Origin: a virus
Reading direction: 5' to 3' (one strand)
DNA: 18,322 nucleotides
Virus genome (UHGV): UHGV-0162284
Shown here: positions 6,906-18,322 of the stretch, piece by piece
How the letters are laid out: each line of letters starts with the position of its first letter
Numbering within the stretch: the stretch's first letter is position 1
Translations under genes and position numbers: made by a program
Notes under the pieces: generated by a model
What the model saw: the letters and a program-made list of their open reading frames with translations, nothing else
The model's database searches: none
Told to the model about the DNA's origin: nothing

Positions 6906-7503
6906 TCTGCTGCCACCGGGTTCAACACCACTGGAGCGCCGACTGGCGCAAACCTGCAGCGGGATTTCTGATCTGCAGGTGCCGCTGCGTGACTTGTGGA
7001 ATCCGGCAACCTGTCCGGTCAGTTTCCTGCCTTATCTCGCCTGGGCGTTCTCTGTAGATCGCTGGGACGAGGGCTGGACAGAAAGCGTCAAACGCCAGGT
7101 GGTGAAGGATGCTTTTTATATTCATCAACATAAAGGGACCACCAGTGCCGTGCGGCGGGTGGTGGAGCCGTTCGGCTTTCTGATCCGCATTATTGAGTGG
7201 TGGCAGACCGGAGAGGCACCGGGCACGTTTCGCCTGGATATCGGCGTGCAGGACCAGGGCATCACTGAAGATACCTATCTGGAACTTGAGCGGCTGATAA
7301 GCGATGCCAAACCATGTAGCCGTCACATGATCGGCATGTCCATCAATCTGCAGACCAGCGGCCCGCATTGGGTGGGAGCCGCCAGCTATCTTGGCGAAGA
7401 AATCACGATCTATCCGTATATCAACGAAACGATTATTTCCGGTGGCACCGCGCATGAAGGCGGGGCGGTCCATGTTATTGACACAATGAGAGTGAATCCA
7501 TGA
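6898..7503 (+). CDS. I: Baseplate/tail protein (P2 gpI family)
   Basis: 201 aa; ELWNP..TCP...LPYLAWAFSVDRWDE and GTFRLDIGV motifs match P2 gpI; overlaps the J stop and the H start. Confidence 0.9.
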   Translation: MNSLLPPGSTPLERRLAQTCSGISDLQVPLRDLWNPATCPVSFLPYLAWAFSVDRWDEGWTESVKRQVVKDAFYIHQHKGTTSAVRRVVEPFGFLIRIIEWWQTGEAPGTFRLDIGVQDQGITEDTYLELERLISDAKPCSRHMIGMSINLQTSGPHWVGAASYLGEEITIYPYINETIISGGTAHEGGAVHVIDTMRVNP

Positions 7504-9182
7504 GCACAAAATTTTATACCCTGCTGACGGATATTGGCGCGGCGAAACTTGCCAGCGCCGCCGCGCTCGGTGTGCCGCTAAAAATTACCCATATGGCGGT
7601 GGGCGATGGCGGCGGAGTATTGCCAACGCCGGACGCAAAGCAGACGGCACTGGTAAATGAGAAACGCCGGGCTGCGCTGAATATGCTTTATATCGACCCG
7701 CAGAACAGCAGCCAGATTATTGCTGAACAGGTGATCCCTGAAAACGAGGGCGGTTGGTGGATACGTGAAGTGGGCCTGTTTGATGAGTCCGGGGCATTGA
7801 TTGCCGTGGGCAACTGCCCGGAAAGCTATAAGCCGCAACTGGCTGAAGGCAGCGGGCGCACCCAGACCGTGCGCATGGTGCTGATTACCAGCAGTACGGA
7901 CAATATCACCCTGAAAATCGACCCTGCCGTTGTGCTGGCAACCCGCAAGTATGTCGATGACAAGGCACTGGAGCTGAAGGTGTACGTGGATGACCAGATG
8001 GCAAAACATCTTGCCGCACTGGACCCGCATTCGCAGTATGCACCCAAAGAAAGTCCGACGTTTACCGGAACCCCCAAAGCGCCAACGCCAGCGGCGGGGA
8101 ATAATACCACGCAGCTTGCGACCACCGCATTTGTTCAGGCGGCACTGACGGCTCTTATTAATGGTGCGCCAGCCACGCTTGACACGCTAAAAGAAATAGC
8201 CGTAGCCATTAACAATGATCCGAAATTCAGTACCACCATTAACAATGCGCTGGCACTGAAAGCGCCGCTGTCGAGTCCGGCACTCACCGGAACGCCAACA
8301 GCCCCCACGGCGGCGCAGTCGGTCAACAATACACAGATTGCCACTACGGCTTTTGTGAAATCGGCGATTGCGGCAATGGTGGGTTCTGCACCTGCGGCAC
8401 TGGATACACTGAACGAACTAGCGGCGGCGCTGGGGAATGACCCGAACTTTGCCACGACAATGCTTAATGCACTGGCAGGTAAACAACCGCTGGACAATAC
8501 GCTGACTAATTTGAGTGGAAAGGATGTTGCTGGTCTTCTCGCATACCTTGGTTTGGGAGAAGGTTCATTTGGGTTCAGAAATCTGGTTGCCTTCACAACG
8601 GCTGGAGTAACAAACTGGACTGTTCCTGAAGAGTTGCGCAAAGGAAGAAAATGTTACGTCAAAGTTATTGGTGGCGGTGCGTCAGGAGGGATAGGTTCAA
8701 CAACCGCTTCAGCCGTTACATGTGGCGGAGGAGGTGGTGGGGGCGGAGTTGCTGAGGGGCTGGTAGATTTAACTGGTATAAACAGTGTTTCGATTACGGT
8801 TGGTGCCGGTGGTGCGCCTGTGTCTGGTATTTCTGTAAACGGTAAAAATGGTGGCTCGAGCAGTTTCGGGACTTACATGTCAGCTTCCGGAGGCTATAGC
8901 GGAGGCCAGCCTTCCGGAGGGTTAGGCGCAGTTGGTGTCGGGGGAACAATTAATACATCGCTTGGGCCAGGTTCTCCAGGTTCCATTGCTTCTGCCGCAT
9001 CGGGAGCTGGTAATGGTGGTTCTGGTGGTGGCCCCGGAGGAGCAGGTTCATTCAGAGATACAGCTAACGGAAAAGCGGTATCAGCAGTTGGGCCTGGAGG
9101 TGGCGGTGCTGGATTATGTCCTAATTCATCAACGGGTCAGTCGGGTGCCGGAGCAGATGGCGCAGTTTATATTTACTGGTGA
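7500..9182 (+). CDS. H: Tail fibre protein (P2 gpH family): conserved N-terminal shaft fused, in the present orientation, to a glycine-rich C-terminal tip
   Basis: 560 aa; N-terminus (MSTKFYTLLTDIGAAKLASAA...MAVGDGGG...ESYKPQLAEGSGR) and NDPNFATTMLNALAGKQP match P2 gpH; similarity ends at LGLGEGS, where the crossover site lies; the ~190-aa C-terminus is Gly/Ser-rich with a GGGGGGGG run. Confidence 0.9.
   Translation: MSTKFYTLLTDIGAAKLASAAALGVPLKITHMAVGDGGGVLPTPDAKQTALVNEKRRAALNMLYIDPQNSSQIIAEQVIPENEGGWWIREVGLFDESGALIAVGNCPESYKPQLAEGSGRTQTVRMVLITSSTDNITLKIDPAVVLATRKYVDDKALELKVYVDDQMAKHLAALDPHSQYAPKESPTFTGTPKAPTPAAGNNTTQLATTAFVQAALTALINGAPATLDTLKEIAVAINNDPKFSTTINNALALKAPLSSPALTGTPTAPTAAQSVNNTQIATTAFVKSAIAAMVGSAPAALDTLNELAAALGNDPNFATTMLNALAGKQPLDNTLTNLSGKDVAGLLAYLGLGEGSFGFRNLVAFTTAGVTNWTVPEELRKGRKCYVKVIGGGASGGIGSTTASAVTCGGGGGGGGVAEGLVDLTGINSVSITVGAGGAPVSGISVNGKNGGSSSFGTYMSASGGYSGGQPSGGLGAVGVGGTINTSLGPGSPGSIASAASGAGNGGSGGGPGGAGSFRDTANGKAVSAVGPGGGGAGLCPNSSTGQSGAGADGAVYIYW
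8536..8561 (+). repeat. Left recombination site of the invertible segment (gix/hix-like 26-bp imperfect palindrome)
   Basis: TTCTCGCATACC-TT-GGTTTGGGAGAA inside H (codes ...AYLGLGE); matches the reverse complement of 10336..10361 at 19 of 26 positions, with the same central TT. Confidence 0.65.
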
Positions 9183-9189
9183 GGTTCAT

Positions 9190-9360
9190 ATGTGGGCAAG
9201 AATTGAAGAAAATAAAGTAGAAGAGATAACGGAAATTAATCCTGAAGGAAGATTCCATCCATCATTAATATGGAAAGAATGCCCTGCTGACACACAGCAG
9301 GGGGATTTATATATTGATGGTGAGTTTATTGTGCAGTCTCCGGCAGTTCAGGCCAGATAA
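9190..9360 (+). CDS. Small hypothetical protein (57 aa) coupled to H; candidate minimal chaperone/accessory for the Gly-rich tip, or a remnant
   Basis: ATG 9190 lies 8 nt after the H stop behind GGTGAGG; clearly AT-richer than the flanks by eye; the track's 142-aa ORF 8932..9360 is an in-frame extension overlapping H and is not favoured. No family recognised by eye. Confidence 0.3.
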   Translation: MWARIEENKVEEITEINPEGRFHPSLIWKECPADTQQGDLYIDGEFIVQSPAVQAR

Positions 9361-9934
9361 CATCCGGCGCGGTGCTGGTATCTGTTGCCGTCACCGCGTC
9401 AATGTAATCCAGCACAGCGTTAAGTCTGGTTGTTTCTGCCTGCGTCAGTTTACGTCCGGCCTGCAATTTCAGTTGAATCAGACTGATGGAAGCCATTGCT
9501 GCATCAATCAGTGACTGGCGCTGTGCTTCTGCCGCTTCTACTGCGGCACCGTGTTGTGCCTCAGTATCTGTCACCCATTTTTCACCATCCCATTTATCGT
9601 GTGGCGTTAACGGGGCGATAGTGGTTGTATTTTCGGGATAGTCGCCTAGTGCTGTGATTTCTTTGGCATCTCCCGTTTCGGTGTTATAGACGATTTCACC
9701 GCGATGGTCTGACACATATTCCCATGATTTTAAATCCACAGAACGGCAAATTGTATAACCAGCCTTAGATGTAACAGGAGCGTCTAAACAGGAATATGCT
9801 GGAATACCGACACCCACTGCAAGATATTCAGTTGATGCAGAAATATATTCCCGCGTCTCACCATCATAGTTATAGACGGTAATATTCCCCGCCTTCGTGG
9901 CAATAAACTCGCTATTTAATACGGCGTTATCCAT
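9326..9934 (-). CDS. Tail fibre assembly chaperone (Tfa / Mu U / P2 gpG-like), paired with the alternative fibre tip
   Basis: 202 aa on the minus strand; C-terminal region (LIQLKLQAGRKLTQAE...RLNAVLDYIDAV...APDVIWPELP) is typical of Caudovirales tail-fibre assembly proteins; its start overlaps the stop of the upstream minus-strand cassette (TAATG). Confidence 0.78.
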   Translation of the reverse strand: MDNAVLNSEFIATKAGNITVYNYDGETREYISASTEYLAVGVGIPAYSCLDAPVTSKAGYTICRSVDLKSWEYVSDHRGEIVYNTETGDAKEITALGDYPENTTTIAPLTPHDKWDGEKWVTDTEAQHGAAVEAAEAQRQSLIDAAMASISLIQLKLQAGRKLTQAETTRLNAVLDYIDAVTATDTSTAPDVIWPELPETAQ

Positions 9935-10389
9935 TATGCAGCCCTCACGATAAAGTTAAATGCAATATTTCGTGGACGGGTTTCACTCCCGCCATATGAT
10001 GATGTAAATCCCGAATATGCCCGGTGTCCCGCATCCGTCGTATTAGCCCAGGAAGGACCGCTAGAAGTATAGATGACCCCATTGTAATCATGGCCGTGTG
10101 CCTCAATGCTCCCGTCCTGCGCAGACAGGAGAGTCCGTCCTGAATCAATTCCTCTTCCATCATCCCACCCACGAATGAATTCGCCGCGTAAATCTGGCAA
10201 TTTATTTGTCGGATAAACTTTTGCCAGTTCCGGATACTCTTCGGCAGAAAAAGCTGCACCGTTGCATTTCAGCCAGCCTGTTGGCGGTGTGACTGAAGGC
10301 CACGGAACAGGTACGCCAACAGGCAATGCTGAGCCTTCTCCTAAACCAACGTTTAAGAAAATGCAGATGTAACGGCTAACTGGCATCAT
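9934..10389 (-). CDS. Alternative tail-fibre C-terminal cassette (Sv'-like, tail-collar-type receptor-binding region); promoterless until inversion fuses it to H
   Basis: Minus-strand ORF carries GLGEGS at residues 15-20, the same junction peptide as H at the left site; downstream PVPWP...GWLKCNGAAFS..YPELAKVYP...LPDLRGEFIRGWDDGRG matches the phage tail-collar pattern. The first 14 codons of the track ORF are probably not translated in vivo. Confidence 0.72.
   Translation of the reverse strand: MMPVSRYICIFLNVGLGEGSALPVGVPVPWPSVTPPTGWLKCNGAAFSAEEYPELAKVYPTNKLPDLRGEFIRGWDDGRGIDSGRTLLSAQDGSIEAHGHDYNGVIYTSSGPSWANTTDAGHRAYSGFTSSYGGSETRPRNIAFNFIVRAA
10336..10361 (-). repeat. Right recombination site of the invertible segment (gix/hix-like)
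   Basis: Plus strand TTCTCCTAAACCAACGTTTAAGAAAA; its reverse complement TTTTCTTAAACG-TT-GGTTTAGGAGAA aligns with the left site; lies ~50 bp upstream of the invertase start. Confidence 0.65.
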
Positions 10390-10410: not shown

Positions 10411-10983
10411 ATGATCATGCTTATTGGCTATGTACGCGTGTCAACAAATGACCAGAACACCGATTTGCAACGTAATGCACTGAACTGCGCGGGATGTGAG
10501 CGGATTTTTGAGGATAAAATCAGTGGCACTAAGTCCGACAGACCGGGGCTGAAAAAACTGCTCAGGACACTATCGGCAGGAGACACGCTGGTTGTCTGGA
10601 AGCTGGACAGGTTGGGGCGCAGTATGCGGCATCTTGTTACGCTGATAGAAGAGTTACGCCAGCGTGGCGTGAATTTCCGAAGCCTGACTGACAGTATTGA
10701 TACCAGCACCCCAATGGGCCGTTTCTTTTTTCATGTCATGGGGGCTCTGGCTGAAATGGAACGCGAACTGATAGTTGAACGTACCAGGGCGGGGCTGGCT
10801 GCAGCTCGTGTTAAAGGCAGAGTAGGTGGACGCCGTCCTAAGTTGACCAGCGAACAGTGGGCACAGATTGGGCGTTTACTCGAGGCTGGAGAATCAAGAC
10901 AGCGTATTGCACTGATTTTTGATGTAGGCGTTTCTACCATTTATAGAAAATTTCTGGCCAATAAGAGCATTGAATCCCCCTGA
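10411..10983 (+). CDS. Serine recombinase, DNA invertase (Hin/Gin/Cin/Pin family)
   Basis: 190 aa; N-terminal catalytic motif IGYVRVSTNDQ with the active-site Ser, then GDTLVVWKLDRLGRS, and a C-terminal HTH (QRIALIFDVGVSTIYRKF); length and layout are those of Hin/Gin. True start may be ATG 10417. Confidence 0.95.
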   Translation: MIMLIGYVRVSTNDQNTDLQRNALNCAGCERIFEDKISGTKSDRPGLKKLLRTLSAGDTLVVWKLDRLGRSMRHLVTLIEELRQRGVNFRSLTDSIDTSTPMGRFFFHVMGALAEMERELIVERTRAGLAAARVKGRVGGRRPKLTSEQWAQIGRLLEAGESRQRIALIFDVGVSTIYRKFLANKSIESP

Positions 10984-16866: not shown

Positions 16867-17963
16867 ATTTCAGCTCTGAACTGCTTAACAAAGGCAACAA
16901 AACTCCCGCATTCAGCATCAGTATTGAGGGCAGGGATATCACCACTGTGCTGGATAACCGCCTGATGAGTTTGACTCTGACGGACAATCGGGGCTTTGAA
17001 GCGGACCAGCTTGATCTGGAGCTGGACGACGCCGACGGAAAAATCGTGCTGCCGCGCCGTGGTGCGGTCATTACGCTGGCGCTGGGCTGGAAGGGGCAGC
17101 CGCTTTTCCCTAAAGGGGCATTCACGGTGGACGAGATTGAACACACTGGCGCACCGGACCGCCTGACTATCCGGGCGCGAAGTGCTGATTTTCGGGAAAC
17201 GCTGAATACCCGTCGTGAAAAGTCGTGGCACAAGACCACCGTCGGGGAAGTGGTGAAGGAAATAGCCGCGCGGCACAAGCTGAAGATGGCACTGGGTAAA
17301 GACCTGTCAGATAAACCCGTGGAACATATAGACCAGACTAATGAGAGTGACGGCAGTTTTCTGATGCGGCTGGCGCGCCAGTACGGTGCTATTGCGTCGG
17401 TGAAAAATGGCAATCTGTTATTCATCCGGCAGGGACAGGGCAAAAGCGCCAGCGGTAAACCTCTGCCGGTGATCACTATCACACGCAAGGACGGCGACAG
17501 TCACCGATTTACCCTGGCTGATCGCGGTGCCTACACGGGCGTAATTGCCAGCTGGTTGCATACCCGCGAACCCGCGAAGAAAGAAAGCACCACGGTGAAG
17601 CGTAAGCGCAGGACCGCAAAGCAGAAGAAAGAGCCGGAAGCGAAGCAGGGCGATTACCTGGTGGGTACGGATGAAAACGTGCTGGTACTTAATCGCACTT
17701 ATGCCAACCGGAGCAACGCCGAACGAGCGGCGAAAATGCAGTGGGAACGCCTGCAACGCGGTGTTGCGTCATTCTCGCTACAACTGGCGGAAGGGCGGGC
17801 AGATCTCTACACGGAAATGCCAGTGAAAGTCAGTGGCTTTAAACAGCCGATAGATGATGCGGAATGGACCATTACGACTCTGACGCATACCGTCAGCCCG
17901 GATAACGGTTTTACGACCAGTCTGGAGCTTGAAGTGAGGATTGATGATTTCGAAATGGAATGA
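16863..17963 (+). CDS. D: Tail protein D (P2 gpD late control gene D family)
   Basis: 366 aa, GTG start overlapping the U stop; N-terminus (LLNKGNKTPAFSISIEGRDIT...LTLTDNRGFEADQLDLELDD) and the lysine-rich internal segment are typical of gpD. Confidence 0.9.
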   Translation: MNFSSELLNKGNKTPAFSISIEGRDITTVLDNRLMSLTLTDNRGFEADQLDLELDDADGKIVLPRRGAVITLALGWKGQPLFPKGAFTVDEIEHTGAPDRLTIRARSADFRETLNTRREKSWHKTTVGEVVKEIAARHKLKMALGKDLSDKPVEHIDQTNESDGSFLMRLARQYGAIASVKNGNLLFIRQGQGKSASGKPLPVITITRKDGDSHRFTLADRGAYTGVIASWLHTREPAKKESTTVKRKRRTAKQKKEPEAKQGDYLVGTDENVLVLNRTYANRSNAERAAKMQWERLQRGVASFSLQLAEGRADLYTEMPVKVSGFKQPIDDAEWTITTLTHTVSPDNGFTTSLELEVRIDDFEME

Positions 17964-18053
17964 TTCTTCGCAATGGAGAACTTTTAAGTTTGCAAAATGG
18001 AATAATGCGGTATCATTATTGTGAATTTAGCAAAAATGGGGAGAACTCGAAAA

Positions 18054-18272
18054 ATGATGATTTGCCCACTGTGTGGAAGTGCCGCCCATACTCGCAGCAG
18101 TTTTCAGGTATCTTCATTGACCAAAGAGCGTTACAACCAGTGCCAGAACATTAACTGCAGCCATACTTTTGTTACCCATGAAACTTTTGTTCGTTCGATT
18201 GCAACGCCAAAAGAGTCAAATCCGGTTCAGCCGCATCCAATGAAATCAGGACAGGTGGCGCTCTCTCTTTGA
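18054..18272 (+). CDS. ogr: Late-gene transcriptional activator Ogr (zinc-finger)
   Basis: Track ORF 18021..18272; preferred ATG 18054 gives 72 aa (MMICPLCGSAAHTRSS...KERYNQCQNINCSHTF...) with the exact C-X2-C-X22-C-X4-C spacing and length of P2 Ogr; located after D as in P2. Confidence 0.88.
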   Translation: MMICPLCGSAAHTRSSFQVSSLTKERYNQCQNINCSHTFVTHETFVRSIATPKESNPVQPHPMKSGQVALSL

Positions 18273-18322
18273 CGCTGCCGCCATTTTGTCGCCATCGTTA
18301 AAAAACAGTGCTTCTAACATCA

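Follow-up and report, generated by a model that had tools for sequence, protein, structure and literature searches.

We found that the C-terminal end of the tail fibre H in a P2-type coliphage is, by sequence and predicted fold, a member of Pfam family PF21722 and of the glycine-rich tips of the Pam3 gp24 type. Quite likely, this tip forms the end of the fibre that binds the receptor and a 56-residue protein encoded just downstream helps it to fold; the tip would be expressed in one of two states controlled by an invertase. Sequence comparisons and structural models directly document the family of the tip, its model fold, the gene pairing, the anatomy of the cassette and a natural inversion. 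The window, i.e., the whole stretch of DNA that was analysed (18,322 nucleotides of UHGV virus genome UHGV-0162284), contains in its open reading frame map, from left to right on the + strand, P2-type tail genes for the baseplate (V/W/J/I), fibre H, the invertible cassette, the invertase, sheath FI, tube FII and the tape measure. Features of the fibre locus are as follows.

7500..9182, + strand: H, tail fibre of 560 aa (open reading frame)
7500..8547, + strand: constant part of H (residues 1 to ~350), baseplate-attachment domain and shaft (Pfam, PHROG)
8536..8561, no strand: left 26-bp crossover site, TTCTCGCATACC-TT-GGTTTGGGAGAA (inverted repeat)
8562..9182, + strand: variable tip now joined to H, predicted TNF-like beta-sandwich and polyglycine domain, H residues 355-560
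9190..9360, + strand: 56-aa gene, MWARIEENKVEEITEINPEGRFHPSLIWKECPADTQQGDLYIDGEFIVQSPAVQAR, proposed chaperone of the glycine-rich tip; homologue of the gp25 N-terminal domain
9326..9934, - strand: Tfa, ordinary Mu U'-like tail fibre assembly protein for the alternative tip (Pfam, PHROG)
9934..10389, - strand: alternative, now silent tip, Mu S/S' type (Pfam PF07484 Collar, E=1.1e-14)
10336..10361, no strand: right 26-bp crossover site, TTCTCCTAAACC-AA-CGTTTAAGAAAA, with a core dinucleotide that is inverted compared with the left site (inverted repeat)
10411..10983, + strand: serine invertase, Pin/Gin/Cin/Hin family (Pfam Resolvase, E=1.7e-52; HTH_7, E=4.9e-15)

The first 150 residues of H correspond to Pfam PF12571 (Phage_tail_fib, E=8.5e-65), and residues 1-356 match PHROG tail-fibre families. 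The E. coli SCU-306 chromosome matches positions 8400-9400 of the window at 99.9% identity; there, RefSeq labels H as 'phage tail protein' and the small gene after H as 'hypothetical protein'. A preliminary description had pictured the end of H, after the crossover, as dominated by Gly, Ser and Ala, and the counts agree: 62 of the 206 residues between 355 and 560 are Gly (30.1%), Ser accounts for 12.6% and Ala for 10.7% (53% for the three together), compared with 6.8% Gly in residues 1-354. All motifs quoted in that description were found in H (VIGGGASGGIGS, CGGGGGGGGVAEG, SASGGYSGGQPSGGLGAVGVGG, SGAGNGGSGGGPGGAGS, GPGGGGAGL and GADGAVYIYW). The glycine-rich region starts at the invertase crossover site; the two alternative H proteins have ...GLGEGS in common and differ from residue 357 on.

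The tip had also been thought to be encoded by a compositionally distinct stretch, which was borne out at third codon positions but is no peculiarity of the tip. GC3 is 0.33 for H residues 355-560, versus 0.58 for residues 1-354 and 0.62, 0.58 and 0.65 for the backbone genes I, J and FI; the remainder of the cassette shares the low values (56-aa ORF, 0.30; alternative tip, 0.41; Tfa, 0.41; invertase, 0.50). Total GC is nearly equal (0.53 in the glycine-rich tip versus 0.55) because Gly codons are GC-rich. Low GC3 across the entire cassette therefore points to the cassette as a unit, and not the glycine-rich tip alone, as foreign to the backbone.

A Pfam search of the region around residues 355 to 560, proposed earlier as a check, returned a glycine-rich family: H residues 366-560 align with profile positions 1-225 of the 226 in PF21722 (Gly_rich_2) at 45 bits (E=1.7e-11), above the curated gathering cut-off of 24.3 bits. 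Pfam detected no Collar and no Phage_fiber_2 domain in the tip, while the alternative on the opposite strand is of Collar type, in agreement with the suggestion that the present tip is unlike those of P2 and Mu. In PHROGs, the tip falls in tail families (best, phrog_863, E=1.6e-27). None of the five cassette proteins is covered by an NCBIfam model. We identified 114 homologues of the tip in a large protein database, almost all with PF21722, including every one with a precomputed domain; they are named 'hypothetical' or 'glycine-rich domain-containing protein' and come mostly from E. coli, with others from Citrobacter, Enterobacter, Pseudomonas and Caballeronia. High-identity matches were all uncharacterised E. 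coli prophage proteins, and characterised relatives share ~25-30% identity; no tip of known receptor specificity matched at full length and high identity, and it is such a match that would have made the region ordinary. One candidate from the representative search, P0177, was discarded as a false positive: in this 376-aa protein, FQSLIWVACPTG occurs ten times in alternating frames, which suggests a translated array of DNA repeats. The PHROG family that includes the glycine-rich tip bears the label 'tail fiber assembly'.

A single-sequence phmmer search of PDB with the tip gave no match. When a profile of 68 tip homologues was used, cyanophage Pam3 tail fibre gp24 was recovered (7ypx_A and 7yfw_a, E=7e-8), with an alignment extending to the C-terminal residue of both proteins, followed by mycobacteriophage Bxb1 gp33, the 'tail wing brush' (9D93, E=2e-4). 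The AF2 monomer model of the tip, built from the 68-homologue alignment, is compact (pLDDT 93.7, pTM 0.89, about eleven strands) and has the three-dimensional fold of Pam3 gp24; DSSP assigned its Gly motifs to neither helix nor strand, an outcome compatible with an extended polyglycine/PPII conformation. The earlier view that the tip is neither beta-helical nor collar-type was correct. The top Foldseek match in PDB was again Pam3 gp24 (7ypx_A, E=7e-7, TM 0.66) and the second was Bxb1 gp33; E values for the ALK/LTK glycine-rich domain were 0.02-0.3. A structural comparison gave the following values.

Pam3 gp24: 21.2; 197; 29%
Bxb1 gp33: 16.4; 166; 31%
Bxb1 gp29 spike: 11.3; 151; 19%
ALK glycine-rich domains (four chains): ≈9; ≈120; 19-23%

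Provided that the structures used to train the AF2 weights all predate the Pam3, Bxb1 and ALK entries matched, the agreement is not template recall. Pfam PF12810, the ALK/LTK glycine-rich domain, gave no match to the tip at E≤1. Unlike the H tip, a T-even gp38 adhesin is a protein of its own that is attached to the distal fibre, and no relationship of the tip to S16 gp38 was detected.

In Pam3 gp24, strands of a TNF-like sandwich extend into six loops with twelve glycine-rich motifs; the motifs stack into a hydrogen-bonded lattice whose stems are conserved and whose distal tip, hypervariable in sequence, was proposed to bind the receptor, and the authors pointed to a likeness with S16 gp38 and the ALK ectodomain (PMC9608196). 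Pam3 gp24, Bxb1 gp33 and gp29, and S16 gp38 have been classed together as PPII-helix bundles (PMC13243192). The H tip has the pattern described for gp24, i.e., conserved Gly stems with variable stretches between them (PMC9608196): Gly columns in the tip alignment are conserved (mean entropy of 1.0 bit versus 2.2 for other residues), and the most variable runs (398-408, 441-447, 495-505, 517-525 and 539-547) all lie between Gly motifs. On this basis, we infer that the tip binds its receptor via the variable turns. LPS recognition was reported for a Klebsiella phage fibre of this fold, with host-range mutations in the glycine-rich domain (PMC12671077). That fibre is too distant for its LPS receptor to be transferred to the H tip.

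The tip is one half of an invertible segment. Inverted 26-bp sites within the fibre gene delimit this segment, and the serine invertase lies next to it. The sites contain TTGGTTTGGGAGAAGG, the repeat of the e14 P segment (PMC12529663), and orthologues of the invertase are named 'recombinase family protein' or pinE in RefSeq. Two opposed tips were present, each with an assembly gene: Gly_rich_2 and the 56-aa gene on the + strand, and Collar and Caudo_TAP on the - strand. The Tfa of the second pair is assigned to Pfam PF02413 (Caudo_TAP, E=3.5e-32) and to phrog_105 (tail fiber assembly, E=3e-96), and, with the cassette oriented as it is here, runs antisense to the late operon. Upon inversion, the part of the alternative tip from 10347 down to 9937 would join H; in silico, this placed H residues 1-356 in frame with the Collar tip in an open reading frame that reads ...LGLGEGSALPVGVPVPW....

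Both states were observed in E. coli. The glycine-rich tip is on H in SWYHX138.261ft, and the Collar tip (the expressed one) is on H in SWYHX138.33gt, the two strains being sister isolates from the same horse-faeces series. In their prophages, the proteins J, I, Tfa, invertase, sheath and tube have identical accessions. A 1853-bp segment is 99.95% identical in reverse orientation between them, the flanks are collinear (99.96%), and the inversion breakpoints map to the homologous 26-bp sites. Such a clean inversion between sister strains indicates that the switch works in nature.

Among complete E. coli genomes, 54 of 5426 had the 'on' arrangement in close relatives of the cassette, and the predicted 'off' junction was contiguous in at least 19 E. 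coli genomes. The idea of an exchangeable, imported module gained support from an e14-like prophage element with a Mu-type baseplate, in which positions 8537-9994 of the window are found at 96.7% identity and the similarity begins exactly at the left site. Judging from this shared segment, the cassette moves between unrelated prophages. The tip and small ORF occurred as a pair in only 2 of 50,697 cultured phage records, Yersinia phage MLG42 and Pseudomonas phage Amjad_SA; the low-complexity filter of tblastn may hide tip matches, and the small ORF, which is not of low complexity, yielded the same two records. In MLG42 the pair is silent and has no invertase, and in Amjad_SA everything is annotated as 'hypothetical'.

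The gene that accompanies the tip, which was absent from the preliminary description, is a 56-codon ORF that begins seven nucleotides past the H stop codon, after the Shine-Dalgarno-like sequence GGTGAGG. Its orthologues have 54-57 residues and occur in Yersinia phage MLG42, Citrobacter, Leminorella, Budvicia, Intestinirhabdus, Pseudocitrobacter, Trabulsiella and Edwardsiella. Non-synonymous differences among them amount to ~0.2 per site and synonymous sites are near or at saturation; by this measure the ORF is evidently a real gene under purifying selection. It is 'hypothetical' in RefSeq and was left unannotated in MLG42.

The small gene accompanies the glycine-rich tip in different genomic contexts. 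A Mu-like prophage of Leminorella, which lacks both invertase and Tfa, ends with a Gly_rich_2 fibre and, behind it, the small gene. In Budvicia, a P2-like prophage has the small gene where gene G would normally be, after an H of P2 type whose tip is Gly_rich_2. When the small ORF was the only bait and each species was represented by one genome, nine loci were found, and in every one a Gly_rich_2 ORF on the same strand stops a few nucleotides before the small ORF. Adjacency is not absolute: a deacetylase-domain gene lies between fibre and small ORF in Pseudomonas phage Amjad_SA.

The 56-aa protein had no match in Pfam, NCBIfam or PHROGs; against PDB, single-sequence phmmer found no match and an eight-sequence profile gave chance matches only. 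An exhaustive HMM search detected 689 relatives, and among the matches listed the alignment almost always runs through the N-terminal ~50 residues of the relative. Of 147 relatives sampled, 110 exceed 100 residues and just 20 have 70 residues or fewer. C-terminal domains of the longer proteins include Phage_tail_APC (16), DUF4376 (17) and Caudo_TAP (3); the Pseudomonas and Stutzerimonas relatives, of 129-187 residues, contain Phage_tail_APC or DUF4376. The family profile of the 56-aa protein matched the Pam3 fibre chaperone gp25 (7ypx_a, E=3.7e-9), and its AF2 model has five strands (pLDDT 88.7). Residues 1-55 of gp25 form a beta-sandwich on the side of the TNF-like/glycine-rich module (PMC9608196). 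Residues 64-162 are a helical trimerisation domain that the Pam3 authors deemed necessary for fibre assembly. As far as sequence comparison can tell, the 56-aa protein is the fibre-binding domain of the gp25 type alone, a domain homologue and not a full family member. Since it does not have the helical trimerisation domain, its action cannot be identical to that of gp25. A separate idea, that it is a truncated copy of the neighbouring Tfa, was ruled out by hhalign, which found no relationship between the two proteins (probability 2%).

We infer that the 56-aa protein has chaperone activity. In the Gly-on state, Tfa is antisense to the late operon, and by analogy with Mu G the 56-aa protein would therefore be the only assembly factor encoded in cis. 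A stronger proposal would make this single domain of 56 residues, which has no trimerisation module, a complete and sufficient assembly factor for the polyglycine tip, and we put its chances slightly below even.

Some Tfa proteins, such as those of Mu and P2, are reported to stay on fibres. The 56-aa protein could likewise be a permanent accessory subunit of the mature tip that shapes or shields its receptor-binding face, a reading favoured also by the presence of the fibre-binding domain without the release or trimerisation machinery of gp25 and by the stable conservation of the short form in several enterobacterial genera. However, the interface of the homologous domain in Pam3 is small (~550 Å2) and the Pam3 authors argue that the chaperone is released, and we regard a retained subunit as rather unlikely.

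A role of the tip outside the fibre had been raised as a speculative alternative. It could act in the host, for example by masking receptors against other phages in the manner of e14 StfE2, the P-segment inversion product that was reported to inhibit T2 adsorption (PMC12529663), and the same cassette is indeed present in e14-like cryptic elements. Yet the domain of StfE2 is different and not glycine-rich (PMC12529663), the tip considered here sits in frame on the shaft of a P2-type fibre, with fibre and surrounding tail gene set both complete, and its structural relatives are virion tail proteins; a non-fibre role is thus very improbable. A PADLOC search gave no match for a defence system, and a role of that kind was dropped. 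Least credible of all is an unstructured low-complexity Gly/Ser/Ala linker or decaying remnant: although the 30% Gly, the poly-G runs, the empty single-sequence PDB search and the missing NCBIfam model would suit it, the end-to-end match to PF21722, homology to the solved gp24 and Bxb1 gp33, and the confident, compact AF2 model led to its rejection. On the same evidence, the preliminary label of low complexity was overstated.

The receptor-binding tip with a dedicated small chaperone, which we favour, would operate as follows. The last ~200 residues of H would form a TNF-like beta-sandwich whose strands extend into stacked polyglycine/PPII-like segments, in which variable turns set between conserved Gly stems contact the host receptor. 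During folding, the 56-aa protein would bind the side of the tip module. Tip and mini-chaperone would constitute one half of the cassette, and the Mu-type Collar tip with its standard Tfa the other. Recombination between the 26-bp sites by the serine invertase would allow a lysogen population to release phage with either tip and, consequently, with either host range.

A tractable E. coli prophage with a working invertase offers a natural on/off control of a polyglycine tip. The putative chaperone is also small enough to travel with the tip. In this setting, experiments can address directly which receptor is used, what the variable turns do and how little chaperone is needed, and the compact module may be of use for host-range engineering of P2-like phages and R-type tailocins. 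If the 56-aa protein is sufficient, the invertase would toggle between two structurally unrelated tip-and-chaperone systems, beyond two receptor specificities; this protein would be the smallest known tail-fibre chaperone, and tip plus chaperone would be a portable cassette of ~0.8 kb for retargeting P2-type phages and tailocins. In addition, the database annotation of the 56-aa gene (RefSeq, MLG42) and the PHROG label of the tip can be corrected.

Solved glycine-rich fibre tips include those of a cyanophage and a mycobacteriophage (Pam3, 7YPX/7YFW; Bxb1, 9D93). In a non-exhaustive search of the open-access literature, we found no paper on glycine-rich tips in P2-group coliphages or on a single-domain chaperone, and nothing on PF21722/Gly_rich_2. 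Compared to Pam3 gp24/gp25 (PDB 7YPX, 7YFW; PMC9608196), in which the tip follows a short helical bundle, the H tip is on a long P2-type shaft. Pam3 gp25 has 162 residues including the helical trimerisation domain, whereas the putative chaperone described here has 56 residues and no such domain. Moreover, Pam3 is a cyanophage; in the E. coli phage, the tip/chaperone pair is in an invertible cassette beside a second tip. Bxb1 gp33 and the gp29 tail spike subdomain (9D93) are siphovirus tail-tip decorations, in contrast to the myovirus side-fibre tip reported here, and Bxb1 has no invertase switch and no evidence of a small chaperone. The glycine-rich domain of ALK/LTK (PDB 7LRZ, 7LS0, 7NX0; PF12810), a metazoan cytokine receptor, is related in fold, but the H tip is not a member of that family. 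According to the literature, T-even gp38 adhesins (S16 gp38, 6F45; T2; PP01) use a polyglycine lattice with variable turns for receptor recognition.

The switch is of the standard Pin/Gin type and the tip family is known. As in Mu G, P1 C and e14 P, a serine invertase is adjacent, 26-bp inverted sites lie in the fibre gene and two tip-plus-assembly-gene pairs are opposed; the crossover core is identical to that of the e14 repeat. What is new, a minor novelty, is a P2-type coliphage fibre cassette that sets such a tip opposite a structurally unrelated one, together with a single-domain putative chaperone. In the classical Mu G, P1 C and e14 P systems, both halves are related Collar-type tips with Caudo_TAP chaperones, whereas one half of the present cassette consists of a glycine-rich tip of unrelated structure and a mini-chaperone that is likewise unrelated.

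RefSeq annotates the small gene that follows the fibre gene H, a proposed chaperone gene for the glycine-rich (Gly_rich_2) tip of H, as a 67-aa protein (WP_074014618.1) whose start lies within H (window 9157-9360; locus L001 3758-3961). From the sequence, a 56-aa product is more likely, because all orthologues begin with MWARIE... and a Shine-Dalgarno-like GGTGAGG is present upstream of the ATG at 9190. Two features of the window involve this gene and the shaft of H:

Window 9326-9360 (35 nt): convergent overlap of the 3' ends of the 56-aa gene (+) and the tail fibre assembly gene, Tfa (-)
Window 8049-8489: two tandem copies of a unit of ~74 residues in the H shaft, seen in translation

Comparable overlaps of ~30 nt were observed in Yersinia phage MLG42 and in Citrobacter. 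Given these overlaps and the 35 nt found here, the halves of the invertible cassette abut tail to tail without a spacer. The unit of the H shaft follows the pattern ...TGTP.APT.A....N.TQ.ATTAFV......GAPA.LDTL.E.A.A..NDP.F.TT..NALA.K.PL. Past the tail genes, at the window's right end (17850-18322), GC content drops to 0.43-0.45; this stretch may mark the boundary of the late operon or represent a further imported gene.

The representative search with the profile of the small ORF also matched a database protein of 376 aa (P0177), in which FQSLIWVACPTG occurs ten times, interleaved with the same repeat in other reading frames. This match was rejected as a false positive; the protein resembles a translated DNA repeat array (CRISPR-like).

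The fibre of the e14-like element in E. coli CH4804 (locus L002, 3723-4646) has two separate entries in RefSeq, a 'stfP' pseudogene and a 'glycine-rich domain-containing protein'. A single uninterrupted reading frame of 308 codons, identified by six-frame analysis, spans both entries, so the fibre is probably a short StfP-Gly fusion, intact but mis-annotated. Within the Collar-type tip, ~140 bp (window 9995-10135) had no detectable nucleotide match to this element, and the remaining cassette sequence was 83-97% identical between the P2-like and e14-like forms. The alternative tip is thus locally mosaic in this patch.

Relatives of the glycine-rich tip and of the small ORF were detected in two phages:

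Yersinia phage vB_YpM_MLG42 (PP599993.1), L003 3989-4793, between genes G and FI: silent inverted glycine-rich tip and an unannotated 55-aa ORF
Pseudomonas phage Amjad_SA (OP917824.1), L018 1463-4180: Gly_rich_2 fibre, a 419-aa protein and a 59-aa chaperone homologue

MLG42 is a cultured, L-413C-like plague phage. No invertase was present beside the inverted tip and 55-aa ORF at its locus, and the pair looks to be what is left of an invertible segment that has become frozen. In Amjad_SA, the 419-aa protein is encoded between the fibre and the chaperone homologue and contains a polysaccharide deacetylase domain (PF01522, E=1.9e-8), which hints at a fibre-associated enzyme that modifies surface glycans.
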